Shown in pieces: positions 3,407-44,225 of a stretch of DNA of 64,000 nt (the first letter of the stretch is position 1; each line of letters begins with the position of its first letter). Both the position numbers and the translations under genes were made by a program. A model generated the notes under the pieces. It did not search any database. It had not been told where the DNA came from and worked only from the letters and a program-made list of their open reading frames with translations. Location: assembly GCA_048885705.1 (NCBI GenBank), contig JBHLLJ010000002.1:1117-65116 (forward strand). The letters run 5' to 3'. This DNA is from Candidatus Hermodarchaeota archaeon. GTDB taxonomy: Archaea > Asgardarchaeota > Lokiarchaeia > Sigyniarchaeales > SOKP01.

Positions 3407-4081
3407 TTAAAGAATTCTATAAGTTAATTCATAATAAGTTATAATTCTATTGGAAACAATCCATGCATCTAATGAATGTTGGGAAATAGAAATTAAATTT
3501 TCTGAAAGTTTAAGGATATCTTTTGAGAAAATACTTTTTTGAAAGCCCCCTACAATAGTGATGTAATTCTTAGTTATGTCTTCAGTAAATAATTCCTTAT
3601 AATTATCAACCATCCTTCCTTTTTTCGAAAAGATATAAATTTCTGGGTCGATAAAATTAGTAATAAGTTCAGTTAAAGATCCTTCAAAAAGGCTTATTAA
3701 TTTCGTATTCTCTGTTTCTATGCTTCCATCTATTAACAATTTGGCCATTAATCCCTTAAATCGATTAAAATTTCGTGCGATTCTGATTTCTGGATTGAAT
3801 TTAAAAACTTTATTTTTAATTGTATGGATATATAATTCCAAATTTCCATTCTTGTTTAAGGAGGATCCTAGTGCATTTAGTAGACAACTATGAATTATAT
3901 CTGGTCGTCCTCTTTTTTCTCTATCCTTTATATTTTTCATTGCTGAATGATGTAAAGCATTATCTAAGAGTTGTGAAGCATAAATTCTTGATGATAAATT
4001 TTTTTTAATAGCTGGGTGATCCCTTATACGTTTTGGGATTAATTCTAACCCACAATCGACTAAAATTAATATTAATGGAAT
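3407..4081 (-). CDS. nep1: rRNA small-subunit pseudouridine methyltransferase Nep1/Emg1 (SPOUT), with a non-canonical start
   Basis: The track ORF (3407..3940) starts MKNIKDREKRGRPDIIH, which is the Nep1 RGRPDI motif. The frame is open a further 54 codons, to a TAA at 4103-4105. It encodes the Nep1 N-terminus LILILVDCGLELIPKRIRDHPAIKKNLSSRIYASQLLDNALHHSA with no ATG/GTG/TTG. An ATT at 4081-4079 lies 7 nt after GGAGG and overlaps the Rpp21 stop as TAATT. Confidence 0.8.
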   Translation of the reverse strand: MPLILILVDCGLELIPKRIRDHPAIKKNLSSRIYASQLLDNALHHSAMKNIKDREKRGRPDIIHSCLLNALGSSLNKNGNLELYIHTIKNKVFKFNPEIRIARNFNRFKGLMAKLLIDGSIETENTKLISLFEGSLTELITNFIDPEIYIFSKKGRMVDNYKELFTEDITKNYITIVGGFQKSIFSKDILKLSENLISISQHSLDAWIVSNRIITYYELTYRIL

Positions 4082-4437
4082 TAGTGTTCCTCCCCTTTTA
4101 CTTTATTATCTTTTAATTTATAAAAATATCGAGTAGTTTTGTTACAATCTAGACAGGTTACTGAAATATGAGATCTTTTTCCGCTTGAATGTAATCTAGT
4201 TCTGCTGTTGATCCCAGGGTAAAGCAAGTTCTTACATTTATGACATATTCTTTTTTTCCACGTAATAGGAATTTTAATCTTGGCTCTTTGAGCATATCGT
4301 CTTGCCAAATAAACGTAGCGATTTGCTAAATTTTTATTTTGAGGAAAAGTTTCATGAGCTTTTTGAAATAAATAAAGCATTCTTGAATTTGCAATTTCCT
4401 TTATGAGATATTTTACATTTTTATTATGTTTAGGCAT
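4081..4437 (-). CDS. rnp4: RNase P protein component 4 (Rpp21/Rnp4)
   Basis: 118-aa basic protein. An N-terminal helical region (RMLYLFQKA...LANRYVYLARRYAQRAKIKIP) precedes the zinc ribbon CHKC...CLDC. Position next to Nep1, YhbY and eS19 is typical. Confidence 0.75.
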   Translation of the reverse strand: MPKHNKNVKYLIKEIANSRMLYLFQKAHETFPQNKNLANRYVYLARRYAQRAKIKIPITWKKRICHKCKNLLYPGINSRTRLHSSGKRSHISVTCLDCNKTTRYFYKLKDNKVKGEEH

Positions 4438-4459
4438 CTAAACTATCTTAATTGCGATT

Positions 4460-4732
4460 TTATTTAAATCTTTTAATGTCATAGAGAGAAAGTATGAAAA
4501 TTTTTCCTCTAATATCTAATAAATATGAATTTGTTAATTTTGAGACTTTTAGTGCTAAATCTTCCATATTTGACTTTGTAGCTACAGATTTTAATGCTTT
4601 TAATTTTATTATTTTATATCTCTTTAATAGCTTGGTGACATGATTGATAAATTCATCTGATATTCCACGTTTGCCTAAAATACAGTGTGGTTGTGAAAGC
4701 AAAGCATTTTTAAATTCTTTTTGATAACTCAT
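4460..4732 (-). CDS. YhbY/CRM-domain RNA-binding protein
   Basis: 90 aa. ILGKRGISDEFINHVTKLLKRYKIIKLKAL matches the YhbY pattern (iGk.Gl....v...l..hEliKvk). It sits in the conserved archaeal neighbourhood. Confidence 0.6.
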   Translation of the reverse strand: MSYQKEFKNALLSQPHCILGKRGISDEFINHVTKLLKRYKIIKLKALKSVATKSNMEDLALKVSKLTNSYLLDIRGKIFILSLYDIKRFK

Positions 4733-4827
4733 GGTCCCAGAACTCGGAAAATACGAAAAATTTTTAATCTATTCTGACTTTTAAAACGTATTATATTTAA
4801 TAAAGAAGGATAAAATTAAAGATTAAC

Positions 4828-5253
4828 ATGTCGATTTTTCTAGTAAACGCAGAAATGCTTATTGAGGCAATAGCAGAAAAACTAAAGGAGTATCCCGAGA
4901 TTTCACCACCGAAAGGTTCAGAATTTTGGAAAACAGCTTTTTTCAAAGAATTAGCACCAAATAATTTTGAGAATTTTTGGTATATCAGATGTGCTTCAAT
5001 TCTCAGAAAAGTAAAGAAGTATGGACCCATAGGTGTAAATAAACTGAGGAAGTTTTATGGAGGACGAAATAGAAAAGGTCCTGGACTCCATCACTCTGCT
5101 AAAGGGAGCGGTAAAATTATAAGAGTAGCCTTACAGCAGTTAGAGAATGCTAAATTACTTGAAAAAATAGAAAAAGAAGGAAGAGTAGTTTCAGGAGAAG
5201 GAATTAGTTTACTAGAAAGAATGGCATATGCTATAACAAGGCAAAAGGTATAA
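4828..5253 (+). CDS. rps19e: Ribosomal protein eS19
   Basis: 141 aa. WYIRCASILRKV...YGGRNRKGPGLHHSAKGSGKIIRVALQQLE is the eS19 signature region. Confidence 0.9.
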   Translation: MSIFLVNAEMLIEAIAEKLKEYPEISPPKGSEFWKTAFFKELAPNNFENFWYIRCASILRKVKKYGPIGVNKLRKFYGGRNRKGPGLHHSAKGSGKIIRVALQQLENAKLLEKIEKEGRVVSGEGISLLERMAYAITRQKV

Positions 5254-5278
5254 AATTTGTATTATTTGGGGATCTATA

Positions 5279-5620
5279 TTGAGTAATGATGAAGAATTAG
5301 ACGAAATTAGAAGAAGAAGGTTAGAAGAATTAAAGCAACAAGCAGTACAACAGAAAATAGCAGAAGCTCAAGAGAGAGAATTTGAAGCTAAAAAATACCA
5401 AATAATGCGTAAAATTCTATCATCAGAAGGTAGACAGAGATTAGAAAATATTCGAATGGTTAAACCCGAATTTGCCGAACAAATAGAAATGCAGTTGATT
5501 CAGTTATTCCAATCAGGAAAATTAAGGGGTGCTACACCATTACCAGATAAAGCATTTAAGAAACTTTTAGAACAAATTTCTTCATTTGATAGAAAAAAAG
5601 AATTTAATATTAAAAAATAA
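5279..5620 (+). CDS. PDCD5/TFAR19-like DNA-binding protein
   Basis: 113 aa with a TTG start. The sequence is RRRRLEELKQQ...ILSSEGRQRLENIRMVKPEFAEQIEMQLIQL. It holds the conserved position between eS19 and eL39. Confidence 0.75.
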   Translation: MSNDEELDEIRRRRLEELKQQAVQQKIAEAQEREFEAKKYQIMRKILSSEGRQRLENIRMVKPEFAEQIEMQLIQLFQSGKLRGATPLPDKAFKKLLEQISSFDRKKEFNIKK

Positions 5621-5642
5621 CTTAAAAAAAAAAACAAAGAAA

Positions 5643-5804
5643 ATGGCTCGTAATAAAAATTTAGGATCAAAACTACGAAGGGCAAAAAGGATGAAACAAA
5701 GCCAATCTATTCCTAATTGGGTTACTATAAAAACAAATCGCAATATGAGAAGTAATCCATATTCAAGAAGAGCATGGCGGAATGCTAGATTAAAAAGAGA
5801 TTAA
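5643..5804 (+). CDS. rpl39e: Ribosomal protein eL39
   Basis: Internal ATG of track ORF 5586..5804. MARNKNLGSKLRRAKRMKQSQSIPNWVTIKTNRNMRSNPYSRRAWRNARLKRD matches the ~51-aa eL39 family end to end. Confidence 0.9.
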   Translation: MARNKNLGSKLRRAKRMKQSQSIPNWVTIKTNRNMRSNPYSRRAWRNARLKRD

Positions 5805-5829
5805 AATTAATGTTATAGAATGAAAAAAT

Positions 5830-6276
5830 ATGGCAAAAAAAGAAAAAGAGATTAATTTAGAAGATTTGGAAGAAGAATTAGTAGATTCTGAAGATAATGA
5901 AGAAGAAATTGAAGAGATCGAAGAATTCAGTTTAGACGAAATTTCTGAAGAAGAAGAAATAAGTGAGATTTTTGAAGAAGAAATTGAAGAAAGAGAAGAA
6001 ATTGAAGAAGAGGCACCCAAAGAGGAGATAATAGATGAAAGGATATATATAATCCCCCTCGCAAAAGCCCGTAAGGGTCCAAGAAATAAGAGAGCTAAAA
6101 AGGCTATTAGATATTTGCGAGAGTATATGACTCGTCATTTTAGGCCAGAATCTTTAGTAATTACTCAAGAAGTAAATGAGGCAATATGGGCTCGAGGAAT
6201 TCAAAAACCACCTCGAAAATTAAAAGTAAGAGCCACAAAAAACATTGATGGTCTTGTAGTTGTCTACTTAAGTTAA
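5830..6276 (+). CDS. rpl31e: Ribosomal protein eL31 with a ~69-aa acidic N-terminal extension
   Basis: The C-terminal 79 aa (ERIYIIPLAKARKGPRNKRAKKAIRYLREYMTRHF...NEAIWARGIQKPPRKLKVRA) are eL31. The preceding 69 aa are E/D/I-rich, encoded by GAA-rich sequence. Confidence 0.85.
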   Translation: MAKKEKEINLEDLEEELVDSEDNEEEIEEIEEFSLDEISEEEEISEIFEEEIEEREEIEEEAPKEEIIDERIYIIPLAKARKGPRNKRAKKAIRYLREYMTRHFRPESLVITQEVNEAIWARGIQKPPRKLKVRATKNIDGLVVVYLS

Positions 6277-6342
6277 AATTTTATTATTTTATAGAAAAAA
6301 TTATTCTGTTTTTAATGTATATTAAATTTAAAGAAATAATCA

Positions 6343-7014
6343 ATGACAATTATTAAGGCACAAATATTTGGTAAGAGTCTAATCGGGGTTTATTTAACAG
6401 CAAATAATTCTTATCTACTTTACCCTCCGACGTTAATAAAACCATTAATCAAGAAATTCATAACGATTTTTGAGGAACCATTTTATCCTCTTACAATTAA
6501 TAATTCGAATTTATTAGGAGTTTACCTGGCATCCAATAAGTATGGAATAATTGTACCTCATATTATTAGAGAAGATGAACTTAATAAATTAAAATCTTAT
6601 ATGAATGACTCTTATAATATTGGAGTTTTGAAATCAATCGATAATGCGTTTGGTAATTTAATTTTATGTAATGATAAAGGAGCAATAATTAGTTCCTTAT
6701 TGGAAAATTACAAAGCTGAGATTGAAGATATTTTAAATGTTGAGACTGTAGTTTATGAATTTGCTGATTATTACCTCCCTGGTTCAATATCTTTAGCAAA
6801 TAATTATGGTTGTTTAATTCATCCATTATCAACTGATGAAGAAATAAAATATATTTCTTCTGTTTTAAAAGTCAATGAGGTTGATGTATCAACTGTTAAT
6901 CGTGGTGTACCATTTTTAAGTTCTGGAGCAATTGTAAATGATAAAAGTGGAATTTTTGGTAATGATTGTACAGGCCCAGAAATGATGAGAATTACTAGTG
7001 TTTTAGGTCTATAA
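6343..7014 (+). CDS. eif6: Translation initiation factor 6 (aIF6)
   Basis: 223 aa starting MTIIKAQIFGKSLIGVYLTANNSYLL. The five-fold pseudo-repeat length fits, and it holds the conserved position after eL31. Confidence 0.85.
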   Translation: MTIIKAQIFGKSLIGVYLTANNSYLLYPPTLIKPLIKKFITIFEEPFYPLTINNSNLLGVYLASNKYGIIVPHIIREDELNKLKSYMNDSYNIGVLKSIDNAFGNLILCNDKGAIISSLLENYKAEIEDILNVETVVYEFADYYLPGSISLANNYGCLIHPLSTDEEIKYISSVLKVNEVDVSTVNRGVPFLSSGAIVNDKSGIFGNDCTGPEMMRITSVLGL

Positions 7015-7147
7015 CAACTTTTTAGTAAGTTTTCTTTACATGAAGATGATACTTATTAAATTCTTACTGTTGATAAAATACAAAATTTAATATTTTTAAG
7101 AATATTATGCTATTTTAATAGCTTTGAATTAGTGGTTATAATTATTA

Positions 7148-7375
7148 ATGTCAGAGATTAAAATTTTCAGAATTATTGGCAACTACAAAAAAAATCATAA
7201 AAAATATTTATTTAGGAAGGAAGTACGCGCTTTGAAGGAAAAAGATGCTCTTGAAAAAGTTTTAAGTCAAATTACTTCAATTGGAATATATAGACGACAG
7301 ATCAATATTCAAGAAGTAAAAGAAATAAGTCTGGAAGAATCTCAAGATCATCTTATTCGAGAATTATCAGAATGA
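7148..7375 (+). CDS. rplX: Ribosomal protein LX (eL20 family)
   Basis: 75 aa starting MSEIKIFRIIGNYKKNHKKYLFRKEVRALKEKDALEKV. Conserved position between aIF6 and prefoldin alpha. Confidence 0.75.
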   Translation: MSEIKIFRIIGNYKKNHKKYLFRKEVRALKEKDALEKVLSQITSIGIYRRQINIQEVKEISLEESQDHLIRELSE

Positions 7376-7396
7376 TAAAAAACATAAATATTAGAT

Positions 7397-7816
7397 TTGA
7401 TTAGAATGGAACCTTCTCGAGAATATCAAGAGCAATTGATAAGATTCCGATATCTAAAGGAACAACGTGATATGTTTCAAGGGCAATTAGAAATCATAAA
7501 TGCTTCTCTAAGTAATATTATGAATACTAAAAATACCATAGAGAATATAAAACAAGGTGTAAAAGAAAACGATGAAATTTTAGTGCCAATCGGAGGTTTA
7601 GTAAATTTGAAAGCATCTATTAAAGATACAGAGAAGGTTTTATTAGCTATTACACAAGATGTAGTAATAGAGAAAGAATTAGATGAAGCTGTTGAATTTC
7701 TCAATAAATTAATAGAGCAACATCACAAACAAATTCAATTTTTAACTACACAAATCCAAAATTTGGATGTAACCCTAACACAAATTTCTCAATTTATTCA
7801 ACAAGGTTCTACATAA
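7397..7816 (+). CDS. pfdA: Prefoldin alpha subunit
   Basis: 139 aa with coiled coil, beta hairpins (ILVPIGGLVNLKASI, KVLLAITQDVVIE) and coiled coil. The start may instead be the ATG at 7406. Confidence 0.75.
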   Translation: MIRMEPSREYQEQLIRFRYLKEQRDMFQGQLEIINASLSNIMNTKNTIENIKQGVKENDEILVPIGGLVNLKASIKDTEKVLLAITQDVVIEKELDEAVEFLNKLIEQHHKQIQFLTTQIQNLDVTLTQISQFIQQGST

Positions 7817-7881
7817 GATAAGCTTTTTTTACTTAATACCATCACATTTTCAATCAAATTTTAAAGATCTAGGAGAAGTGA

Positions 7882-8772
7882 ATGCTTGAAAAATTAAAGA
7901 ATGCTTTTTCATCATTTGTTAAAAAAACTTTAACAGAGAAAAAGTTAGATAAAGCCATTAATGAACTTAAACTACTTCTTTTAAGTAATGATGTAGCAAT
8001 CGACACTGCTGATGAGATATGTAATAGGATCACTGTATCCTTTAAAAATGAGCAAATTGGACGATTAACATCAACTCCAAAGATGTTATTTGAAGTCTTA
8101 AAAGAGACTATCACAGAAATCCTAACACCTGAAGAAGAAATTGATTTACTTACAGAAATTAAAAAGAAAGGTTCACCTTATGTTATTGTTTTTTTAGGGG
8201 TGAATGGGACGGGAAAAACTACAACCATGGCTAAAATTGCTTATTTTTTAAAAAAAAATGGATTTTCAATTGTAGCAGCAGCGTCGGATACATTTCGAGC
8301 AGCAGCTATTGAGCAGTTGTCTTATCATATGGATAAAGTTGGGATAAGAGTGATAAAGCATAAATACAAGTCAGATCCTGCTTCAGTTGCTTATGATGCT
8401 ATTGAACATGCTAAAGCGAAAAAAATTGATGTTGTATTAGTTGACACTGCTGGCCGTCAAGTAACTGATAAAAACCTTATGATAGAAATACAAAAAATAT
8501 GTAGAGTCGCTCAACCAGATCTAATCTTGTTTGTAGGTGACTCCTTAGCAGGTAATGACGCACTTTTTCAAGCAAAGGAGTTTAAAAAGCATGTTGGAAT
8601 TGATGCTAACATTTTAACGAAACTCGACGCTGATGCAAAAGGGGGCGCTGCATTATCTATATCGTTTGAAACAAAAAAACCTATTCTTTACGTTGGTACA
8701 GGACAGAGTTATGAATCATTAATGCCCTTTGATCGAGATTTATTTATATCAAATATTCTGGATATTACATGA
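7882..8772 (+). CDS. ftsY: Signal recognition particle receptor FtsY
   Basis: 296 aa. SRP-GTPase motifs GVNGTGKTTT, DTAGRQ and TKLD. A GGAG lies 7 nt upstream of the ATG. Confidence 0.9.
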   Translation: MLEKLKNAFSSFVKKTLTEKKLDKAINELKLLLLSNDVAIDTADEICNRITVSFKNEQIGRLTSTPKMLFEVLKETITEILTPEEEIDLLTEIKKKGSPYVIVFLGVNGTGKTTTMAKIAYFLKKNGFSIVAAASDTFRAAAIEQLSYHMDKVGIRVIKHKYKSDPASVAYDAIEHAKAKKIDVVLVDTAGRQVTDKNLMIEIQKICRVAQPDLILFVGDSLAGNDALFQAKEFKKHVGIDANILTKLDADAKGGAALSISFETKKPILYVGTGQSYESLMPFDRDLFISNILDIT

Positions 8773-8834
8773 ATTAATACTATTTTAAGTTTCTAAAAGA
8801 TAACTTTTTATCTTACAATACTTTCTTTTTTCTT

Positions 8835-9074
8835 GTGTCTAACTACCCAAAATATGAGAAATATAATACAAGTGAAAAGCAACAAAAACAAGGTCTGTAT
8901 GATCGGATTGTCACATTTTTCCAAAATACAAAAAGAATCGTTAAAATTGCAAATAAGCCCAGTAGAAAAGATTATTTCTTAGTTTTTAAAATATGTGCCA
9001 TTGGAATATTAGTATTAGGAGTTCTCTCCTTTATAATTCAGGCAATTTTTTCTGTAGCTATACCCTATGGTTGA
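8835..9074 (+). CDS. secE: Preprotein translocase subunit SecE / Sec61-gamma
   Basis: 79 aa with a GTG start. KIANKPSRKDYFLVFKICAIGILVLGVLSFIIQ contains the KPxrxE motif followed by a single C-terminal TM helix. Confidence 0.7.
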   Translation: MSNYPKYEKYNTSEKQQKQGLYDRIVTFFQNTKRIVKIANKPSRKDYFLVFKICAIGILVLGVLSFIIQAIFSVAIPYG

Positions 9075-9093
9075 ATTTTTAAAAAAGAAATAA

Positions 9094-10281: not shown

Positions 10282-10491
10282 TTCCTTTTTTATTTTTTTT
10301 TATATTCGCTCAATACATCAAAATATAAAGGAAGAACTATACAAAAGAAGTAGTGTCTAGCTTCGTTAATTAGAATTATCTATAGCCAATTATTTCCAAT
10401 TGAATTATTAAATCTTTAATCTATTGAAAAATTTCTAGAAATTTTTATTAAGCTTGAGTTTTGAACCTACTTCTATATATAATTTTTAAGC

Positions 10492-10676
10492 CTGAATATT
10501 AATTTTGATATACTGAATTAATAATAATTTTGATTATTTTTTTTCTATTAATTTAATTGATTTTAATTTCTTGTAAACGATTTTTAAGATTAAGATTTTG
10601 ATTTTAAATTTAATCCTTAAAATGCTTTAATATGATTGGTTAATTTAATTGATACTTGAATTAATAATTTTGATAA
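10492..10676. repeat. Three copies of a ~20-nt AT-rich motif in the 543-bp dnaG/arsA divergent spacer
   Basis: Copies: CTGAATATTAATTTTGATA (10492-10510), CTGAATTAATAATAATTTTGATTA (10513-10536) and CTTGAATTAATAATTTTGATAA (10655-10676). Low-complexity sequence context. Confidence 0.4.
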
Positions 10677-19239: not shown

Positions 19240-19319
19240 TTCTTAACATTGACTAAAAAATCTTTTAAAAACAAGATTAATTTAAAAAAAGGTGAATTTT
19301 TATCTCAAGTTGGAGAGAA

Positions 19320-20270
19320 ATGAAATCTGCACTAGAAGAAAATTCAAATACAGACATTGAAATATGTAATGAATGTGGAAAAGATATATTTTTTGACGAG
19401 AACAGAGGCTTATTAGTGTGTGAAGAATGTGGTCTAGTTCATTCAGAAAAGCATATTGATCGTGGCCCAGAATGGAGAGCTTTTGATGCAGATCAAAAAA
19501 AAAAGAGGACAAGGACGGGTGCGCCTATGACTTATATGATACATGATAAAGGGCTTAGTACAATGATAGATTGGAAGAATAGAGACATTTTTGGAAAGGA
19601 AATACCCGCTAAATTGAGAGGGCAAATTTATCGACTAAGGAAGTGGCAAAGTCGCATTAGAGTATCTGATGCAACTGAACGAAATCTCACGTTTGCGTTG
19701 AGTGAACTTGATCGAATGGCCTCTAATCTTGATCTTCAAAAAAATTTAAGAGAATGCTCAGCGAAAATATATCGAGATGCAGTTGAGGCTCATTTAATAC
19801 GTGGAAGAAGTATAGAAGGAGTAGCTGCTGCTAGTTTATACGCTGCTTGTAGAATGTATAAGGTTCCACGTACATTAAATGAAATTGCTGAAGTAGCACG
19901 AGTTGATAAGAAGGAAATTGGTAGATCTTTTAGATTTATATCTAATGAATTATCTTTGGAATTAAATCCCACCAAACCAATCGATTTTCTTACACGATTT
20001 ATTTCAGAATTAGGTTTAACAAACAATTGTCAAAAAACTGCAAAAAAGATAATTAGAATGGCAGAAGAACGGGGATTAACCTCTGGTAGAGGGCCTACTG
20101 GTGTTTGTGCGGCAGCTATATATGCTTCGTGTATTTTGTCTAATGAAAGGAGAACTCAAAGAAAAATAGCTAGAGTTAGTTGTGTTACAGAGGTAACAGT
20201 TAGAAATCGATTTAGTGAACTTGTAGAAAATTTAAACTTAGGTATATCGTTAAAGAGAAACAATAAATAA
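19320..20270 (+). CDS. tfb: Transcription initiation factor B (TFB/TFIIB)
   Basis: 316 aa with the N-terminal zinc ribbon [23 protein letters not shown], a B-finger/linker and two cyclin-fold repeats. Confidence 0.9.
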
Positions 20271-20413: not shown

Positions 20414-20749
20414 ATGGATAAGCTAATTAACGAAAGTGAGGTTAATTATTTTTTATACAGGATAGAAAAAAATTTCCCAAACTTTGTTGCTGGAATTATT
20501 ACTGATCGTCATGGTTTCCCTATTGCATCGAAAATATCGAAGAAATTATGGGTTCTTGAAAATACATTAGCATTATCTGCGATAGTTAAAAAGGGTGATT
20601 TTATAGAAGATTCTAGTCTTGTTCAAATCAAAAGAGATTTAGACAAATCAAAAAATTACAAATTATTGGTATTATTGGAGAAATCAAAAGAATACAGAAG
20701 TCGATTAAAACCTTTAAAAAACTTAATTAAATCACAAGAGCTTTTCTAA
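20414..20749 (+). CDS. Roadblock/LC7 (MglB-like) domain protein
   Basis: 111 aa. NFVAGIITDRHGFPIAS fits the Roadblock pattern (ga.lv..dG.pia). Confidence 0.6.
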   Translation: MDKLINESEVNYFLYRIEKNFPNFVAGIITDRHGFPIASKISKKLWVLENTLALSAIVKKGDFIEDSSLVQIKRDLDKSKNYKLLVLLEKSKEYRSRLKPLKNLIKSQELF

Positions 20750-20956
20750 CAGAAAATTTTACAGAAAAGAGAATGAAATTATTTTTTATTGCGAACCGTA
20801 CGAAAACAATTGATTTACTTAAATTTTTATATTTATAGTATCTTCATTAAATTAAGTGATTATAAGGTAAAAATATAAGGTTTGGTTTAAATAACTTCTT
20901 TTTAACCTTAAAGAAACTGATTGAAAGAAAATAATAATTAATAGGTTGACAAATAT

Positions 20957-21427
20957 TTGAGTTATTCCAAGGATGAGCTTAAATTAAAGAAAATTTTAAC
21001 GTTAATTATAAATAGTACAGCAGGATTAAAGTTTGCACTCATCACTGATGATACAGGAATAACAATATTAAGTCAAGCTAAATTTAAGTTTTCCGATCAA
21101 AATGGAATTTCTGTTGAAAAGATTGGTGCAATAGGTGGTGCTGTTTTTGTCGCAGGTGAAGAACAAGGCCATATTTTAGGTTATGGCGCTATTGATCTTC
21201 AAATTACAGAATATCTTGAAGGAATGATCTTTTCAATGAAAGTCGGTAAAGGAGTTTTATGTATTGTTGCTGATAAAAATGCTCAAATAGGATTTATTAG
21301 AGCTACTATGAAGAAGTGGGCTCCGCAAATTACCACCATCTTGAATAGATATTTACAAGCTGATCAGGCAGAACTAGGAAAAGAAGTAAAGGAATTGTTC
21401 AGATCGGATTCTATGGGCATGTTATAA
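20957..21427 (+). CDS. Roadblock/LC7 (MglB-like) domain protein
   Basis: 156 aa with a TTG start. It has GLKFALITDDTGITILS...GMIFSMKVGKGVLCIVADKNAQIGFIR. Confidence 0.6.
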   Translation: MSYSKDELKLKKILTLIINSTAGLKFALITDDTGITILSQAKFKFSDQNGISVEKIGAIGGAVFVAGEEQGHILGYGAIDLQITEYLEGMIFSMKVGKGVLCIVADKNAQIGFIRATMKKWAPQITTILNRYLQADQAELGKEVKELFRSDSMGML

Positions 21428-21791
21428 GACATATAATAGCATAGAATTTTGCCTAAAAACACTAACACTCTTTTCTCATTTTAAGGTTATACCAGAAAAT
21501 CAAAAATGTTCTCTCGTGCTAGGCATTGATTTCTATGCGTTTTTGGGACATAATCATGTTTCCTGTAAGGGTACTGACTCAAACTTCATTGCAGTTGGTA
21601 TTTACCTTGCTAAGTTAAGAGCCCATTTTTCCGGGAAAAGTATTGATTAATCAACTCTAGTGTATGCGTACTCATGCGCTGCATAATCATTATATTTTTA
21701 AATATTTTTATGAGCCCTCGACGACGCATTTAGCCCTTCATAGTTGTCCCAATATATATATAGAATAATTAAATTATAAAAATTACTATTT
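21428..21791. other. G+C-elevated region lacking a canonical ORF; candidate ncRNA, non-canonical small CDS or gene remnant
   Basis: My per-60-nt counts here give 33-38% G+C, against about 22% in a sampled ordinary spacer (10441-10500). There is no track ORF. The plus frame is open over 21390-21650 without ATG/TTG; its first canonical start codon is the GTG at 21516. A 39-aa ATG ORF lies on the minus strand at 21610-21729. ATGCGT/ACGCAT words recur. Confidence 0.3.
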
Positions 21792-22283
21792 TTAAGAAAA
21801 GGGAAAAGGATCCTTTTTATCTAAACCCTTTATCTTATCTTCAATTCTTGATATTAAATTAGTTAAACATTCAAATAGTATTTTTCTTATGATCTCGTAG
21901 TTAAGATCTATTTCTATATCATTAAAATGAAAATCTGAATCCTTATAAAATGCCTTGTAAACATTTTCTGTTTTTAGAATTTTATAGCTTGAATCAACTA
22001 GAAAAGTATAAAGATCTTCACTCTTATATTCTTTTTTCATTATCAAAGAGAGCATGACAAATTCTTTATTACCACGTGCCCATTCAGACGGGATCTCAAA
22101 ATGAAAGTTAATAATCTTCTTTTTTTTAGTAATTAGAACTATTTCAAAAAAAGCTTCATCGATTTCGAGGTCGAAGAATTTCTTTAACTTATTTATAAGG
22201 TTTTCCTCTAATTTTTCATCAGGATATGATAGTAAAACACTTGGACCATTAATTTGATGGAAATAAGTTAGAATTAAGTGTAT
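21792..22283 (-). CDS. Hypothetical protein with a longin/roadblock-like alpha-beta N-terminal region; non-canonical start
   Basis: The track ORF starts at the ATG at 22055. The frame is open 78 more codons, to a TGA at 22290-22292. It encodes HLILTYFHQINGPSVLLSYPDEKLEENLINKLKKFFDLEIDEAFFEIVLITKKKKIINFHFEIPSEWARGNKEFV with no ATG/GTG/TTG. An ATA at 22283-22281 lies 6 nt after GGTGA. The fold call is inference. Confidence 0.5.
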   Translation of the reverse strand: MHLILTYFHQINGPSVLLSYPDEKLEENLINKLKKFFDLEIDEAFFEIVLITKKKKIINFHFEIPSEWARGNKEFVMLSLIMKKEYKSEDLYTFLVDSSYKILKTENVYKAFYKDSDFHFNDIEIDLNYEIIRKILFECLTNLISRIEDKIKGLDKKDPFPFS

Positions 22284-22364
22284 ATTTACTCACCAAACGT
22301 TTAATAGAAGATATATTTCAGAAATTTAAAATTAATTTTATAGAAATAGTATACTACCAATTTA

Positions 22365-23132
22365 CTAATAACTCTTATTTATTAAAGATAGAATATCATC
22401 ATAAGATCCAAGTAATTTCTTAACATTCAAATCTCCTAAGCCTTTACTAGGTTCACCTTCGAAAATAACCCTTCCATCGTCTAATACAATAAGTTGATTA
22501 GCCCAATGTTGTACAAAGAATAAATTATGAGTGGTGAAGAGAATTGTTATTTCATGGTTTTTTCTTAGTTTTTCTAAAATTTTAAGATGATTATAGATTG
22601 ATTTAAAGTCTAGATTTGCAAAAGGTTCATCCAATATCAACAGCTTTGGCCTCATTACAAGTAACCCTGCTAAAGCAGCTCTCTTTCTTTGACCCCAAGA
22701 AAGATTAAATGGTGAATACGCCCTAAAGCGTGATAATCCCACAATTTCTAAAGCCCAATCCACTCTTAATTTAACTTCTTCCTCATCTAATTTTAAATTT
22801 CTAGCTCCGAAACTAATATCTTCTTCAATACTTGGTGCAAATAGCTGATCATCAGGATTTTGAAACAAAAATCCTATCTTTTTTCTAAGCTCCCATATTT
22901 TATATTTATCTCTTGATAGCTGTTCATTAAAAATCTTTATTTGCCCTGATTTTGGTTTCAACAATCCCACTAATAAACGTAATAAGGTTGTTTTACCAGA
23001 ACCATTATTTCCTGTTAGTGCAGTTATTGTATCTACCTCGATCTTAAACGATATATCTTGAATTTCAAATCCTAAATTATAACTAAAATGCAGATTTTGT
23101 ACTTCTATGGCAAAAATAATCCAAACACCCAT
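22365..23132 (-). CDS. cbiO: ECF/cobalt transporter ATPase (CbiO/EcfA)
   Basis: 255 aa with Walker A GNNGSGKTT, signature LSWGQRKRAALA and Walker B LLILDEP. Confidence 0.85.
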   Translation of the reverse strand: MGVWIIFAIEVQNLHFSYNLGFEIQDISFKIEVDTITALTGNNGSGKTTLLRLLVGLLKPKSGQIKIFNEQLSRDKYKIWELRKKIGFLFQNPDDQLFAPSIEEDISFGARNLKLDEEEVKLRVDWALEIVGLSRFRAYSPFNLSWGQRKRAALAGLLVMRPKLLILDEPFANLDFKSIYNHLKILEKLRKNHEITILFTTHNLFFVQHWANQLIVLDDGRVIFEGEPSKGLGDLNVKKLLGSYDDILSLINKSY

Positions 23133-29442: not shown

Positions 29443-29602
29443 GCGTAAATAATGTGAATAGCATTTTAGCTCTTAAATTATCTGTTTTCGATATTTAATT
29501 TATACATATTTAAGCTAAAGGATAAATTTTTTAAGTTTTATCCAATTCAATTAGAATATAGAATAAAATTAGATTAGATAAAATTACAAGTAGCTGATTT
29601 TA

Positions 29603-29875
29603 ATTCCAAAAAAAAGAAGAAGTGGAGGAAGAAGCGGTTCTAGTAAAGGACATTACGCTAGAGTTCAATGCAGCAAATGTGGAAGATTTGTTGCTAGAAG
29701 CAAAGCTAAAGCTGTGACAAGAAGAGTGTCTCTTGTTGATAGTCGTATGTACACAGAATTAAAAAAAGCGGGTACAATTATTCAGTCCCCAAGTAAGACT
29801 AAATACTATTGTATTAGCTGTGCTATTCACGGACATCAGATAAGCCAACGTGATAAGAGTTTAAGAAAGGAATAA
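29603..29875 (+). CDS. rps26e: Ribosomal protein eS26 (missed by the ORF track; ATT start)
   Basis: The frame after TAG (29591-29593) reads CTG ATT TTA ATT CCA AAA AAA AGA AGA... It gives (I)PKKRRSGGRSGSSKGHYARVQCSKCGRFVARSKAKAVTRRVSLVDSRMYTELKKAGTIIQSPSKTKYYCISCAIHGHQISQRDKSLRKE, ending at TAA 29873-29875. It has the eS26 landmarks M-[PT]-KKR, GH...C..C and YC.SCAIH. The only ATG is internal (RMY). Confidence 0.8.
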   Translation: MPKKRRSGGRSGSSKGHYARVQCSKCGRFVARSKAKAVTRRVSLVDSRMYTELKKAGTIIQSPSKTKYYCISCAIHGHQISQRDKSLRKE

Positions 29876-31896: not shown

Positions 31897-32075
31897 TTGA
31901 TTAACGAGATTACTGTGATTTATTTAGATAAAAATTCATTAAATAAATAATAGATATTAAAATAATATATTTTTTTCATTAAAATAAATCAAAATAGAAA
32001 AGGAATTAAATATAAATTAGAATATAAGGCTTAGATAAAAATTAATAGATTTTAATTAAAAATTACCCATAGTGA

Positions 32076-32600
32076 ATTATTATTCTATTAATAGATGTTG
32101 TAGGATATTCCGGGTCCGGAAAGACATTATTTATAACTAAAGCTATAAAATTATTAAGAAAAAAATTGAATTGTAATATTTCAGTCATCAAAAATATAAA
32201 ACATCACCCAGTTGACGAGATGGGAAAAGATTCTTATAGCTTTACCAAAGCAGGTGCAATCTATTCTGTGATTCAAAATAAGTATCATGAAACTGCAATT
32301 TTTGTAAAAACTGAAGAAAATAAATTAGAACAGCTTTTAAAATGGTTGCAATCTGGACCTATCAAACTAGATTTAATTTTTACAGAAGGCTTTAGGAGTC
32401 TAAACAATCCTACAGTTTTATGTATATCTGATTTAAAAGAAATCAAAGAGCAGTTAACAGAAAACGTCAAAATGATATCAGGAATTATCTGTTCGAAGAA
32501 ACCAATCAAAAAAAGTGTCTATAATATACCAATAATAGACATTGAGAGCCAATTTTCAACTTTTTTGAACTTATTTAACATTTTTCCAAAAAGGAGCTAG
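32076..32600 (+). CDS. mobB: MobB-like P-loop NTPase (non-canonical ATT start)
   Basis: Track ORF 32166..32600 (TTG start) contains HHPVDEMGKDSYSFTKAGA, the MobB KH..h..D..GKDS...aGA motif, but lacks a Walker A. The frame is open upstream to a TGA at 32073-32075. It encodes IIILLIDVVGYSGSGKTLFITKAIKLLRKK with no ATG/GTG/TTG, only ATT x3 at 32076-32084. Confidence 0.75.
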   Translation: MIILLIDVVGYSGSGKTLFITKAIKLLRKKLNCNISVIKNIKHHPVDEMGKDSYSFTKAGAIYSVIQNKYHETAIFVKTEENKLEQLLKWLQSGPIKLDLIFTEGFRSLNNPTVLCISDLKEIKEQLTENVKMISGIICSKKPIKKSVYNIPIIDIESQFSTFLNLFNIFPKRS

Positions 32601-38453: not shown

Positions 38454-38620
38454 TGACTGAATAAATTCAAAAATTTTTTAAAAACTTACTATTTACTCAT
38501 TACATTAAATCCACGCAATAAGAATTAAATATTAAAAAACCAAATTTTTAATTCAATTTAAAATTAGACTACACATATAAATTCATTTTTCTAAATACAA
38601 ATAAAAACATACTAAAAGAA

Positions 38621-40087
38621 TTGTCAAAAATGGCACGACCAAGCCCTTTAGAAGTTTATGCATTATTAGACAAAAGTAATTGTAAGGATTGCGGATATGA
38701 CACTTGTATGGCTTTTGCTACAGATATTCTTGAAAGAAAGGTTGTAGTACAAGATTGTACTCATCTAATGCAGGACCCAAAGCAATCAAAAAATCGAAAT
38801 AAACTTATTGCGCTTATAACTCCTCCCCAAAAACCTGTTGTTATTGGAACAGGAGAGAGAGCTGTTACCATTGGTGGGGAAGAAATATTAATGCGTCATC
38901 AACTTACCTTCTATAATCAAACAGGAATTTTTATTGAAGTTGCTGATGATGACCCAGATTTAGAAGAGATAGTAAAATATCTTACAGAACTTAAGATTGA
39001 AAGAATTGGGGATGTTCTAACTTTAGATGGAATTGCCTTAAGAAATGTCTCTGGAGAAGTTGATCAGTTTAAATTAGCAGCAAAGAAAATTGCTAACACA
39101 TCAGATCTTCCAATTATGCTATGCAGTCTTAATGCTGATATTTTATTGGGAGCAGCAGAAGTAATTAAAGATAGAAAACCTCTCCTTTATGCTATTACAA
39201 AAGATAATTGGGAACAGATTGGAAAGTATGCAATTCAAAATAATTTACCTGTTGCTATTACCTCCAATAATTTAGATGAATTAATGTCATTAAGTGCTAC
39301 TACACAAAAATTTGGCGTAAAAGAGATAGTTTTAGATTCAGGAACTTATTTTGGTCCCGGTAATCTTTCTGTAACTTATGACAATATTATGCAATTAAGA
39401 ACTGCAGCGATAGATAAAAAAGATATGAATGCAGGTTGGCCAGTTATGGGAGTTCCTGCGGCTTATTGGAGTCAAGTAAAAATTGGAAACAAGAAAAATC
39501 TCTGGGAACATCAATATCAAGAAGTCATTATGGGTGCTATAATGGAATCAATAGATACAAACCTTATTGTCTTACATACTGGTCAAAAGAAAGAAGAAAT
39601 CTGGGCTCTTTTAGCTTTAATGACACTACGCCAAAGTGTATTTTCAGATCCAAGAATTTATCCCGCTGTTGATCCTGGTCTTTATAAGGTTGGAGAACCA
39701 GATGAAATGGCTCCTATTTTTGTTACAAGTAATTATAGGATGACTAAAATACCTGTTGAGCAAGATTTACAAGGTGCAAATTTGAATTGTTGGCTTTTAG
39801 TCGTTGATACAGAGGGAATAGGAATTGAAAGCGCGGTAGCTGGTGGACAATTTAATGCTGGTGGAATAGCAGAAGCAGTGAAAGAATTTGGAGCCTTTGA
39901 TAAAGTAAATCACAGAATTTTAGTAATTCCCGGCATGGCTGCTCGTTTGAGTGGAGCTTTAGAAGATGAAGCAAATGCTTTTGTAGTTGTTGGACCTAGA
40001 GACAGTTCTGGAATCCCAAAGTTTATGGATACACAGTGGAAACCAGAAGAATTTATGAAAGAATTTGAATCTTGGTCAAAAGAATAA
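38621..40087 (+). CDS. cdhE: Corrinoid iron-sulfur protein large subunit (CdhE/AcsC, ACDS gamma)
   Basis: 488 aa with a TTG start and the N-terminal [4Fe-4S] motif LDKSNCKDCGYDTCMAFA. Length and layout match CdhE. No other cdh genes are in the window. Confidence 0.75.
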   Translation: MSKMARPSPLEVYALLDKSNCKDCGYDTCMAFATDILERKVVVQDCTHLMQDPKQSKNRNKLIALITPPQKPVVIGTGERAVTIGGEEILMRHQLTFYNQTGIFIEVADDDPDLEEIVKYLTELKIERIGDVLTLDGIALRNVSGEVDQFKLAAKKIANTSDLPIMLCSLNADILLGAAEVIKDRKPLLYAITKDNWEQIGKYAIQNNLPVAITSNNLDELMSLSATTQKFGVKEIVLDSGTYFGPGNLSVTYDNIMQLRTAAIDKKDMNAGWPVMGVPAAYWSQVKIGNKKNLWEHQYQEVIMGAIMESIDTNLIVLHTGQKKEEIWALLALMTLRQSVFSDPRIYPAVDPGLYKVGEPDEMAPIFVTSNYRMTKIPVEQDLQGANLNCWLLVVDTEGIGIESAVAGGQFNAGGIAEAVKEFGAFDKVNHRILVIPGMAARLSGALEDEANAFVVVGPRDSSGIPKFMDTQWKPEEFMKEFESWSKE

Positions 40088-40153
40088 GATAGATAAAATC
40101 TTTTTTATTTTTTTTCTCTTTTTTTAATTGCTTAGTAGAGTCATATATCTCTT

Positions 40154-40819
40154 TTAAATTAAAGAAAATATCATATTACTGTTTAAATCACTAACAGAAT
40201 TGATAATTAAAGCTTTTCCTATTTTTATGTCCTTTAATTGATTAGCTGAATGATTTCCTGTTAAAACTCCTATAAATGGACAATTTAAATTATTAGAAAG
40301 CATTACATCTTTAGGATGATCTCCAATAATAATAGTCTGATATTCAGCATATTTAGTATCGAAAATTTTCTTTAGACTAGGGTCAAGCTTACCTAATTCC
40401 TTTCTATCTTCTGTTTCTCCTAAAATAAAGTCAAAAAACTTTTGAATGTTTAAAATTTCAATGATCTTTTCTGCCATTTCTTGCTTTTTAGAAGTTATAA
40501 CCCCCAGGGTCAAGGATAATTCCTTTAATTCTTTTAGTTTTGACATAATTCCCGGTAATAAATTAGCTTGATATATTCCTTTTTTTCCATAGTAATCTCT
40601 GAATGTTGCTATTAGGGCTAAATAATCTTGGTTTGTTACTTTAGCAAACATCTCTTTCAAAGGTATGCCAATCATAGTCTCTATTATGTGACTTTTCAAT
40701 TTAGGCAGACCATGCTTTTTTAATGCGTAATTAAATGAATTTACAATGCCTTCACTATTATTAATTAAAGTGTTATCTAAATCAAAACTTAAGATAATCT
40801 TTCTATTTTTAATGTTCAT
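40154..40819 (-). CDS. HAD-superfamily hydrolase (phosphoglycolate phosphatase-like)
   Basis: 221 aa with motif I FDLDNTL, motif II VITSK and motif IV IIGDHPKD. Confidence 0.75.
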   Translation of the reverse strand: MNIKNRKIILSFDLDNTLINNSEGIVNSFNYALKKHGLPKLKSHIIETMIGIPLKEMFAKVTNQDYLALIATFRDYYGKKGIYQANLLPGIMSKLKELKELSLTLGVITSKKQEMAEKIIEILNIQKFFDFILGETEDRKELGKLDPSLKKIFDTKYAEYQTIIIGDHPKDVMLSNNLNCPFIGVLTGNHSANQLKDIKIGKALIINSVSDLNSNMIFSLI

Positions 40820-40906
40820 TTTCTTTTAATTCAGTAAAATGTAAAAATTAAATAAAAGAAGATTTATTAAAATTTGTTTTTAAAATTTTACCTTGATTTA
40901 AATTGA

Positions 40907-42127
40907 TTATGTCATATAAATTGTCAGTAATGGATCTCCTAAAAACATCATCCCATATACTTCTTCCCAGTGATTGAAAGGAATAATTTCTGGCCCATAG
41001 AACCAATCTTTAAAAGCTTCTCCAAAAATCTTTCTATCCCTTAAGGAATCGTAAAATGGTTGATATAGACACATCCCTCCCGATCTTGAACATCCAATTA
41101 CATTAAGTGTTTGACCACTAAAAAGGTAATGTGTGGCGATATTATTTGTAATCATCAGATTTGCTGAAAAACAAGAATACAAATTAAAGAATAGAGGTTG
41201 GGGTCCAGTATTATATATATCATTGTATGTTAAAATTCCATCATTAGGGGTCGACTGATATATATTAACACCAAATTGTTGTTCAGTACCATTAGAATGA
41301 GCTAATACATGTACAAGTTCAAAATTAGTATAAGCAGGATGAGTTATATCTGAAATGTTTGATAGAAAGTATGTAGCATTAGTAAAATCATTCGCATAAT
41401 AATTATAGTCTGATTCACAAGTAAGATTATTTCCCGTATAAGCAGTGAACGCACCAACCCATTCATTACTCCAAGCAGCCCATTCATCATCAATATAAAG
41501 TAATGCTTTATTTGGACGATAAGTAGCACCAGTTCTTAAGTTATGAGTCCTATTGAAGAAATTATTTAATGCCGTAATTGGATTGAAACCTGTTTTAGAT
41601 ATAGTATATGGACTGATTCGAGCAATCCAGATCTCCGGAAGTGCGTCTGCTGTGCCATTATTATGCTCAACATGATTATCAGTAGCACCAACATCATAAA
41701 AACCATTTGAATTCACATCAGTCCAATTTCCATCTAAATCCATTAAATAATAATCACAAGAAAATTGGCGAAACATAGCCCACGCAGAATCCCAATATTG
41801 TGCTTTCGCATAAGGAAGTTTTCCTATTAATACCGCTCCAATAAGTCCTTGAGAATAAGTATTTATCAAATCTTGCTTTAAATCGTCCACGGAATTATTT
41901 GACCAAGTGATCAGATCTACAGTATAGCCTTGATTAATTATATCTTGCCTATATTGAGTGATTTCAGCGTTTATTTGATTATAAATTGTAGAGTTGACAT
42001 AAATTCGTACATAATTTGGTGGAGCAGGTTGTCTCCCACTAAAAATAATTAGAGAAAAAGGAATTGTCGCTCCGATAAATATGATGCTTATTACTAAAAT
42101 AAGGATAATTTTATTAATTTTTTTCAT
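40907..42127 (-). CDS. Membrane-anchored clan-CD cysteine peptidase-like protein (gingipain/C25-like)
   Basis: 406 aa with an N-terminal signal-anchor helix. LIGKLPY...CDYYLMDLDG...PEIWIARISP resembles the C25 N-terminal region. Candidate His/Cys dyad in VLAHSNGTE and FFNLYSCFSAN. Confidence 0.5.
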   Translation of the reverse strand: MKKINKIILILVISIIFIGATIPFSLIIFSGRQPAPPNYVRIYVNSTIYNQINAEITQYRQDIINQGYTVDLITWSNNSVDDLKQDLINTYSQGLIGAVLIGKLPYAKAQYWDSAWAMFRQFSCDYYLMDLDGNWTDVNSNGFYDVGATDNHVEHNNGTADALPEIWIARISPYTISKTGFNPITALNNFFNRTHNLRTGATYRPNKALLYIDDEWAAWSNEWVGAFTAYTGNNLTCESDYNYYANDFTNATYFLSNISDITHPAYTNFELVHVLAHSNGTEQQFGVNIYQSTPNDGILTYNDIYNTGPQPLFFNLYSCFSANLMITNNIATHYLFSGQTLNVIGCSRSGGMCLYQPFYDSLRDRKIFGEAFKDWFYGPEIIPFNHWEEVYGMMFLGDPLLTIYMT

Positions 42128-42309
42128 AATTAATTCCTTCTTAAAGATTTGATTGATGAAGATTTCTAATTTATTTAATAGATCTTCTATATGAGATAAT
42201 TTAGAAATCTCTTTTTGATATTATCATATAGGTCTAATTTAAAATATTTAAGCTTTTATCCCAGACTAATTAGATATTCTACAAGAAAGTAAAATATAAT
42301 GATAAAGCA

Positions 42310-43962
42310 TTATTTTATTTTGAAACCTTTAAAAAGTTTTAAAAGAAACATTATTTCTTCCGAGGCTTCGATAATTCTCTGTAAATCGAAGGGAAAATTA
42401 TTTATATCAACCTCTTTCCCTTCAGAAACTCTTTCAATCATAATTTCTATTATTTTTTTATACTTTTTTACCGTAGTTCCTTCAGATTCTATTTCAGATA
42501 TTACTTTCCAAGCTTTATCTAATTTTCCTGTTAAGATGCATGAAATTGATGCTAATACATAACTAAGAACGATATGAGAATAACCAATATTCTTTAAATT
42601 TGCTGCTCGATAATAATATCGATACAAATTATTAACCATTTCTCTTAGAAGGAAATCTTTTGCAGTATCAAGCTGTTCATAAAATTTTATACTTTCTAAA
42701 ATCAAAGTTGCTGCTGTATAAAATTGCTTGTTTTTTAATCCTTCTTCAGCAATCTTATTCAAACCTTTTATAATTTGGTTAAAAATTCCAAAACTATTGA
42801 ATTCTAGTTCCCCTTCAATTGCCGCATCATAAGCATTTAAAAAACTCTCAGTAGATTCGTTAAAACTTCCAACTTTCCAATAATTATCACCAGCTTCTAC
42901 AAAATGTTTATATGCCATTTCAAAATTCTCGATTTCTTTAAAGATATTTGCTCCATCAAAAAAATTTGTTGCAGCTTGATTATAATCCTCAATTTTTTTT
43001 GAAAAGTTACCCGCTAAAACAAAACAAGAAGCACATTCAATTAGGTTATTCTGAATGTCTTGATAACATAATCCAGCACCTCGATAATATCGAGCAATTT
43101 TATAATAGTTGTCCTTTGTTTTTTCTAATGTTTCTGCTAAGTCTATGTACGCTCCTGCTTCTTTTTTAGAGAAATTTAAATATTGATCTTGTTTATCTAA
43201 AATCTTATATAAGTTTTTTAAGATCTGATAAATTTGAGCGAGAGTTAAATTATCATTGTTCTCTTCAAATTTGGTTGCTAAAATGGAGAAAAATTCTACG
43301 CCATTTAAAATAATATCTTGTGATTTATTATAATCATCGATTTCTTCATAACAAGATCCTATTTGTTGATAAGAGTAAGAGAGCATATCAAAATAGTCAT
43401 GTTTTTTAGAAATCTTGATAACTTTTCCATAGTATTCAATAGCATTCTTAAAATCGCTTAATTTCAAATATAGATCTGCTATATTTTGGAAATTTTGAGC
43501 TATTTTTCGCGTTTCATTAAACTCTTTTAAAAGATCACTTTCCTGTTTTAGAAATTTTATACTATTTAGAATATTTCTTTTTTCTGAATGAAAATCTCTA
43601 ATTTTCTCACGAAAAATTTCTGCGATTCTTAAATATAATTCAGCAATTTCATGTAATTTAGCTTGAAGTTTATAATCTACAATTTGCTTCTTATATAATT
43701 CAATTATTTCATTATATAATTTATGAGCTTCAGAAAAATCAATATTTTCCATTATTTCAGCAACAGAAAAAAGGAAATCCCCTGCTTCAAAAAATTCTCC
43801 AGATTGAGCAATCTCATTTGAAAAATTAATTGATTCTGAAACCATTTCGTAAATTATTTTATTCCTTTCTAAAGGATCTTGAATTTGTTTTAATTTGGAC
43901 TCATATTTTCTAAGTTTATCTAAAAATTCTATGTATTCGATGAATTCTTCTTCTTCAATAAT
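42310..43962 (-). CDS. TPR-like helical repeat protein (probable ATT start upstream of the track ATG)
   Basis: The 511-aa track ORF is rich in ~34-aa A/Y/L-patterned repeats. The frame is open 43 codons upstream of the ATG at 43845, to a TGA at 43975-43977, with no ATG/GTG/TTG. An ATT at 43962-43960 lies 8 nt after GAGGAG, 39 codons upstream of that ATG. Confidence 0.55.
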   Translation of the reverse strand: MIEEEEFIEYIEFLDKLRKYESKLKQIQDPLERNKIIYEMVSESINFSNEIAQSGEFFEAGDFLFSVAEIMENIDFSEAHKLYNEIIELYKKQIVDYKLQAKLHEIAELYLRIAEIFREKIRDFHSEKRNILNSIKFLKQESDLLKEFNETRKIAQNFQNIADLYLKLSDFKNAIEYYGKVIKISKKHDYFDMLSYSYQQIGSCYEEIDDYNKSQDIILNGVEFFSILATKFEENNDNLTLAQIYQILKNLYKILDKQDQYLNFSKKEAGAYIDLAETLEKTKDNYYKIARYYRGAGLCYQDIQNNLIECASCFVLAGNFSKKIEDYNQAATNFFDGANIFKEIENFEMAYKHFVEAGDNYWKVGSFNESTESFLNAYDAAIEGELEFNSFGIFNQIIKGLNKIAEEGLKNKQFYTAATLILESIKFYEQLDTAKDFLLREMVNNLYRYYYRAANLKNIGYSHIVLSYVLASISCILTGKLDKAWKVISEIESEGTTVKKYKKIIEIMIERVSEGKEVDINNFPFDLQRIIEASEEIMFLLKLFKGFKIK

Positions 43963-44225
43963 TTTGTATTCTCCTCAAAAAAGTAAAGCCTATTATATAC
44001 AAATTAAAGCAAAAATAAAAAAAATTGGATTTTAAGCCAACCTAAAATATAGAGTTTATTCAAATAAATATCAAGATAATTGCTGGATAATTAAAATAAG
44101 GTTAATAAAGTGTTTCAATCATGATAATTAATAGCTTTCTAAAACGAATAAAACTAAAAAAATAATATTAAATATTATTAGAAACATATAATAATTAAAA
44201 ATATTAGTTTGGTGTTTTTAACAAA

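Follow-up and report, generated by a model that had tools for sequence, protein, structure and literature searches.

Several genes in a 64-kb window of Lokiarchaeia DNA with ~28% GC (contig JBHLLJ010000002.1 of a Candidatus Hermodarchaeota archaeon; "the window" denotes this whole stretch) carry conserved coding sequence that reaches 5' of every in-frame ATG, GTG or TTG (hereafter canonical starts), as seen from Pfam coverage, codon-position variation and, for a TPR/SNAP-like protein, the alignment of orthologues. The start column shared with the orthologues holds ATT, ATC or ATA (ATH), with a Shine-Dalgarno (SD)-like sequence at a working distance 5' of it. Comparison with relatives makes it very probable that near-cognate AUU, AUC or AUA codons behind an SD-like sequence serve as the starts of these genes, and that they do so across the clade. 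ATH starts thus appear to be clade-wide and not peculiar to the source genome, a property of Lokiarchaeia-type Promethearchaeota in which individual genes seem to have switched repeatedly between ATG and ATH.

Open frames and coding signature upstream of canonical starts

A first-pass annotation of the window had singled out five genes, encoding the methyltransferase Nep1, a longin-like open reading frame (ORF), the ribosomal protein eS26, a MobB-like P-loop protein and the TPR/SNAP-like protein, in which the frame stays open 5' of the first canonical start. A stop-to-stop scan bore out all five, and the sequences quoted for them, with their GGAGG, GGTGA and GGAG spacings, were correct on re-check (Table 1). 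As a count, five stands for these genes and is too low for the window, where TFB, the TFIIB homologue, and possibly the ATPase EcfA fall into the same class. By arithmetic at ~28% GC, some 1.3 of 72 genes would be expected by chance to have at least 30 codons free of stops and canonical starts on their 5' side; the scan found six. ATH accounts for 11% of internal codons, so that an ATT close to a start is not rare per se. Taken by itself, the open-frame pattern is suggestive, a moderate and not a decisive kind of evidence, and what decides for ATH starts is homology. A 406-aa ORF (42127..40907) with 31 open codons on its 5' side was considered as a further case and rejected, as it has a normal ATG and a signal-peptide-like N-terminus (MKKINKIILIL).

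Table 1. Genes with well-supported, probable or possible ATH starts and the motifs that precede them. Open frames are given with the number of codons ahead of the first canonical start; energies refer to an assumed anti-SD.
Feature	Coordinates	Strand	Start	Open frame	Remarks
Nep1/EMG1 methyltransferase	3407..4081	-	ATT 4081..4079	4102..3407 (54 codons)	Pfam and orthologues
GGAGG, SD motif	4089..4093	-			7 nt 5' of Nep1 ATT; -10.1 kcal/mol
TFB (TFIIB homologue)	19302..20270	+	ATC 19302 (probable)		Pfam TFIIB and Zn_Ribbon_TF
AGGTG, SD motif	19290..19294	+			7 nt 5' of TFB ATC; TGA of GGTGA is an in-frame stop
Conserved 163-aa ORF (longin-like, fold unverified)	21792..22283	-	ATA 22283..22281	22289..21792 (78 codons)
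GGTGA, SD motif	22290..22294	-			6 nt 5' of ATA; its TGA is the in-frame stop
EcfA/CbiO ATPase	22365..23132	-	ATG 23132 in window; clade-typical ATT 23120..23118		Pfam ABC_tran
eS26	29603..29875	+	ATT 29603	29594..29875 (40 codons)	Pfam S26e and orthologue column
GCTGAT, leader element	29593..29598	+			4 nt 5' of eS26 ATT; imperfect match to AGGUGAUC-type SD
MobB-like P-loop protein	32082..32600	+	third ATT most likely; ATT also at 32076, 32079	32076..32600 (30 codons)
AGTGA, weak SD-like motif	32071..32075	+			in-frame stops: its TGA and the TAG before it
TPR/SNAP-like protein	42310..43962	-	ATT 43962..43960	43974..42310 (43 codons)
GAGGAG, SD motif	43971..43976	-			GGAG 8 nt 5' of TPR ATT; -7.2 kcal/mol

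The window's genes have their counterparts in metagenome-assembled genomes of Promethearchaeota (Lokiarchaeia-type Asgard archaea). Scanning species-representative genomes with eS26 yielded 70 Promethearchaeota loci, which were taken with 10-kb flanks and in most of which MobB and the longin-like ORF are syntenic with eS26. Start columns were anchored on the window's start, or by hand where the automatic choice failed (Leu columns; antisense ORF clusters c17, c19, c22 and c24-c28). A metagenome scan with Nep1 gave a single locus at 32% identity, and Nep1 orthologues were taken instead from protein matches and contig look-ups. Tabulating the codons at aligned starts in the eS26 neighbourhood and a few further loci revealed ATH in the start column of the genes in question, while the columns of about 16 neighbouring control families were almost purely ATG, TTG or GTG. 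The position of ATT or ATA at the point where homologues begin, as the first-pass annotation had it, agrees with both Pfam coverage and these columns, the MobB codon being refined to the third ATT. In some orthologues the position holds ATG, which identifies the column as that of the start codon, and ATH recurs in dozens of independent assemblies.

In the lineages with ATH, heterozygosity between the ATH codon and the first canonical codon is 0.26-0.45 at third positions versus 0.05-0.13 at positions 1 and 2, which amounts to a third-position variation 3-8 times that of the others. The 74 codons 3' of the longin-like ATA behave in this way, as does the corresponding region of the TPR protein (14, 9 and 30 variations at the three codon positions). 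Since these regions vary mainly at third positions, we conclude that they are translated. The ATH column is shared with canonical codons of orthologues in eS26, the longin-like ORF, MobB, Nep1 and EcfA; for TFB and the TPR protein no orthologue with a canonical codon in it was found among 28 TFB orthologues and five TPR DNAs. Which genomes carry ATH differs from gene to gene and therefore points to repeated, independent switches.

Start columns at individual loci and competing readings

For eS26, the Pfam S26e profile (PF01283; 58.6 bits, cut-off 27) has its position 1 on the residue right after ATT, and a start at the first canonical codon would remove the protein's first CxxC pair. Directly ahead of the conserved Pro-Lys-Lys-Arg stands ATT in 60 of 69 genomes, ATC in two, ATA in two, ATG in four and TTG in one; this column (64 ATH, five canonical) contains no other codon. 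GCTGAT is the best-conserved stretch 5' of the gene (65 genomes), shares its register with the GGAGGT of L044 (L numbers denote individual loci) and, apart from a single internal mismatch, corresponds to UGAU in an extended SD. GAGGT followed after 7 nt by ATT is found in L041, L044 and L066, and GGAGG was found 5' of eS26 in ATG lineages. No other non-coding stretch of the neighbourhood is as well conserved as the whole leader (R-G-CTGAT-TYW-ATT; window 29560-29602 and the corresponding eS26 loci). Conservation extends to the C that spoils a perfect GGTGAT in it, L040 and L049 having TTG variants; analysis of RNA structure in the leader gave no signal (mean z -0.37).

Another non-canonical codon could serve instead, namely, in eS26, the CTG three codons 5'; in MobB, the first ATT or the ATA; and in the TPR protein, the second ATT. 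This variant of the explanation, which does not contradict it, is quite improbable. Public calls are in its favour: in a near-identical genome NCBI begins eS26 at the CTG (93 aa), and in the source genome it begins MobB at an ATA (169 aa). The TTG of L040 and L049 stands in place of that same CTG. CTG was nevertheless rejected as the eS26 start: it is absent in L041, L044, L061 and L066 and out of frame in L059, L063 and L070 owing to a 1-nt indel in the spacer, so that in these last three only the ATT before Pro is usable. The eS26 lineages with ATG or TTG likewise start directly before Pro. Together, the orthologue column and the CTG indels place the eS26 start at ATT 29603, as proposed in the first pass.

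Of the candidate codons in MobB, the third alone remains ATH throughout the clade. The Pfam MobB match (PF03205; 77.4 bits, profile 2-125) has its position 2 at residue 6 of the frame. Translation from the first canonical codon would cost the protein its Walker A motif (GYSGSGKT), which lies 5' of the first TTG as had been noted. The refinement concerns the choice of codon: members of the window's clade read GTGA and then ATT-xxx-ATT, 8/8 of them carry ATT or ATA three codons after TGA, in alignment with the ATG of L052, L054 and L055, and the third ATT (32082), 6 nt 3' of GTGA, is therefore the conserved one. GTGA is kept across this clade, and further relatives have an in-frame GTG there that is shifted here by a 1-nt indel. 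Sixteen of 58 MobB orthologues have no canonical start ahead of strand beta-1; the other 42 have one.

Nep1 matches the Pfam EMG1 profile (PF03587; 179.6 bits) over its full length, profile positions 1-197 corresponding to residues 5-218 of the ATT-started protein, and the first canonical start would cost it 47 residues of this domain. Its ATT shares bases with the TAA that ends Rpr2, the gene on its 5' side (TAATT), an overlap also present in the close relative L077, which also reads ATT CCA; L078 and L079 have ATG CCA. Nep1 orthologues are 224 aa long with the N-terminus MPLILIL.

TFB probably begins at ATC 19302, judging from its orthologues, 28/28 of which have ATT or ATC in the column followed by TCA AGT TGG. 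AAGGTG is kept 6-7 nt 5' of this codon in all 28 as well, and many have an in-frame TAA after the motif's GTG. The public start is ATG 19320, six codons 3' of the ATC. The TPR protein has a 39-residue N-terminal extension that is conserved in orthologue alignments, and its ATT was found in 5/5 DNAs read; four orthologue DNAs have a stop (TGA or TAG), GGAGA and then ATT AT[TC] GAA GAA GAA, TAG stands immediately 5' of the ATT in L073, and TGAGGAGA is conserved among the orthologue DNAs. A possible additional case is EcfA: in 24 of 31 orthologues AGGTG-N7 leads to ATT and no canonical codon stands ahead of strand beta-1, and six have a canonical start. The window's own EcfA start is ambiguous, since it reads ATG GGT GTT TGG ATT ATT, with an ATG four codons 5'.

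The longin-like family is confined to Promethearchaeota. Its start column holds ATG or GTG in 15 orthologues and ATT, ATC or ATA in 13; GGTGA lies 6 nt 5' in every ATH orthologue examined and not in the ATG orthologues. A search for a longin domain in the 163-aa ORF gave no Pfam match, and its AlphaFold model (pLDDT, a predicted confidence score, of 42.7) was too low for a fold search. It is one of three small ORFs clustered in window 20414-22283 and lies on the opposite strand to the other two, of which one (156 aa) matches MAPKK1_Int (LAMTOR3/roadblock-like; E 4e-6) and one (111 aa) has no Pfam match. The ORFs of this cluster may be a set of small roadblock- or longin-type proteins.

Initiation at the first downstream ATG, GTG or TTG, which would leave the upstream frame untranslated and the proteins N-terminally shorter, is very unlikely. 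Such starts are present in public annotation, where NCBI has truncated forms of TPR (511 aa) and TFB (316 aa) for the source genome and an 87-aa longin-like ORF in a near-identical one, and the TPR ATG is common to many close relatives. They would, however, discard the parts of EMG1, the eS26 CxxC and the MobB Walker A described above, and the upstream regions evolve as coding sequence in the ATH lineages. In addition, the annotated "start" Met of the window's TPR protein is Ile in many orthologues that conserve the extension, and several TFB orthologues have no canonical codon ahead of the zinc ribbon. Truncation, of which the first pass had warned for gene callers restricted to ATG, GTG and TTG, is seen in the public records of TPR, TFB and the longin-like ORF. 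In the source genome NCBI does use ATT for Nep1 (giving 224 aa) and for eS26 (giving 90 aa, N-terminus MPKKRR), and ATA for MobB. Its calls vary among near-identical genomes, with lengths of 90 or 93 aa for eS26 and of 166, 169 or 174 aa for MobB. NCBI translation table 11 likewise permits ATT, ATC, ATA and CTG as starts; the calls made with it are ad hoc. Proteins identical to those of the window appear under the NCBI phylum labels Hermodarchaeota, Hodarchaeota, Promethearchaeota and Thorarchaeota, with different start calls for the same DNA.

Recoding, either by read-through of a stop from an upstream canonical start or by a frameshift after initiation at an out-of-frame GTG within the "SD", is also very unlikely. 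A GTG does lie just 5' in TFB, the longin-like ORF, EcfA and MobB, with some orthologues having it in frame, and the MobB locus reads TTG TGA ATT in L002 and GTG TGA ATT in several clade members. Against this, several stops of all three kinds (TAA, TAG and TGA) precede any canonical start at each of the five loci, which extends to all of them what had earlier been noted for two. The frame and distance from GTG to ATH vary through indels, and many genomes have the GTG or CTG on the 5' side in another frame or with a stop after it. Furthermore, there is no GTG in the GGAGG of Nep1 or the GGAG of TPR, and eS26 has CTG instead. Pseudogenes and errors of sequencing or assembly, conceivable in metagenome-assembled genomes, can practically be dismissed, given that identical codons recur across dozens of separate genome assemblies and in an independently assembled Logan contig (99.8% identity, with identical GGAGGAACACTAATTCC) and that the genes are intact and under purifying selection.

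Shine-Dalgarno motifs by start class

An SD-like motif (GGAGG, AGGTG, GGTGA or GCTGAT) lies 4-8 nt 5' of the ATH starts, and the clear cases are GGAGG at 7 nt, AGGTG at 7, GGTGA at 6 and GGAG at 8. Duplex energies were computed for positions -20 to -3 against the standard archaeal anti-SD, with an assumed 16S rRNA 3' end of GAUCACCUCCU. On this assumption the means were -4.9 kcal/mol for ATH starts, -4.8 for GTG and -4.6 for TTG, against -2.7 for ATG starts and -2.6 for internal control positions. The five ATH starts of the window averaged -6.5 kcal/mol with the same assumed anti-SD, and within the longin-like family ATH members averaged -8.2 and ATG members -1.1 kcal/mol. Complementarity at ATG starts was no higher than background (L002-L071 and the window). 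This suggests leaderless or SD-independent initiation for most ATG genes, consistent with reviews that describe SD sequences as rare in Lokiarchaea. The GGAG-type motifs reported in the first pass 5' of the ATG genes at 7882, 52423, 57002 and 60973 are present. TTG is the conserved start of several families, among them CDP-alcohol phosphatidyltransferases (57/68) and LAMTOR3-like ORFs (37/39).

Several points weigh against initiation at ATH. The 16S 3' end of this clade may differ from the assumed one, and the SD-like motifs of eS26 (GCTGAT at 4 nt) and MobB (AGTGA at 6 nt) are weak. In the window alone the SD motif is not enriched, being present at 6.9% of upstream ATH codons versus 4.75% of internal ones. 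The support for AUH starts comes from sequence comparison, as do the preference for ATH over CTG in eS26 and the choice of the exact start among the adjacent ATH codons of MobB and TPR, and the orthologue survey is confined to the eS26 neighbourhood and a few further loci.

A model for initiation, its precedents and neighbouring features

In the mechanism we propose, the SD-like GGAGG, AGGUG or GGUGA, or the degenerate GCUGAU, would pair with the 3' end of 16S rRNA and thereby put AUH in the P site, where the initiator Met-tRNA would decode it with a third-position mismatch, so that the protein would begin with Met. That this tRNA may read AUH is suggested by analogy with bacterial AUU starts. 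The weak starts (TTG, GTG and ATH) would depend on the SD for their placement in the P site.

Conservation of the weak start across the clade in eS26 (64/69 ATH) and TFB (28/28) invites the idea of a regulatory role. A more far-reaching proposal, which we consider speculative and rather unlikely, is that Lokiarchaeia have a relaxed or tunable start stringency, with AUH stable and selected on perhaps 8-10% of genes and the eS26 and TFB starts acting as infC-like or eIF1-like feedback devices. Such starts would tie core components of translation and transcription to the initiation state of the cell, and they would constitute a prokaryotic precursor of weak-start regulation in the closest relatives of eukaryotes. 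Autoregulatory feedback may run through eS26, the only lead being its position in the mRNA exit channel (reviews), next to the anti-SD.

AUU starts are known from isolated bacterial genes, infC (encoding initiation factor IF3) and E. coli pcnB, and IF3 discriminates against AUU, which results in autoregulation of infC. The genes described here resemble infC in having a clade-conserved AUU, led by an SD, on an information-processing gene and, as proposed, near-cognate decoding by the initiator tRNA. They differ in belonging to Archaea, in numbering at least six within 64 kb and in using AUC and AUA too; the feedback loop is a feature of infC. In eukaryotes, near-cognate initiation is tuned by eIF1 and eIF5 and involves scanning and Kozak context. 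There, likewise, specific genes carry weak sites and stringency is set by a factor of the eIF1/aIF1 type; eukaryotic ribosomes scan with Kozak context, whereas here an SD would position the codon.

Archaeal precedents differ in scope. For the Asgard tubulin AtubA of Kariarchaeaceae, a "rare ATT start codon" has been proposed at a plausible distance from the ribosome-binding site, the first beta-strand lying 5' of the annotated Met (Sci Adv 2026, PMC13394414). This is likewise an Asgard gene that extends 5' of its annotated Met to an ATT near a ribosome-binding site, but a single gene in a different Asgard lineage, treated in a methods remark without clade-wide comparison, while the present cases are several genes across a clade. 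Ribosome profiling of Haloferax volcanii assigned ~30% of putative alternative initiation sites to near-cognate codons, which were set aside to limit false positives (PMC7261190). These too concern archaeal near-cognate initiation, but as putative alternatives and not as conserved main starts of essential genes. Literature searches on start-codon usage in Asgard archaea and Lokiarchaea yielded no systematic account of ATH starts. What is new is thus a clade-wide variant of near-cognate AUU initiation, single-gene AUU starts being already known.

Asgard archaea are the reference group for the origin of eukaryotes, and any inventory of their "eukaryotic signature" proteins is only as good as the gene calls behind it. 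Should ATH be the start of several per cent of Lokiarchaeial genes, callers limited to ATG, GTG and TTG would systematically truncate or lose them, the markers eS26 and TFB and small clade-specific ORFs (22283..21792, for example) among them. The contrast between ATG without SD and non-ATG with SD, together with two core genes fixed on a weak start, offers a handle on start-site selection, and the pattern bears on whether weak-start regulation predates eukaryotes.

Elsewhere in the window, searches for RNA genes with Rfam and ARAGORN gave no matches. A tRNA-Gly(TCC)-like gene at 3253-3357 (minus strand), with a ~32-nt insertion in the T-loop region (GCGCCGC...GGTTCGAT, ~32 nt, ATCCCGGGCGGCGCA), was overlooked by both, ARAGORN having been run with and without intron mode, and the 103-aa ORF that overlaps it (3066..3377) is probably spurious. 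The gene at 38630-40087 (plus strand), by eye a putative CO dehydrogenase/acetyl-CoA synthase gamma subunit, has a conserved ATG start, and its first canonical codon, a TTG three codons 5', is kept in 1/12.

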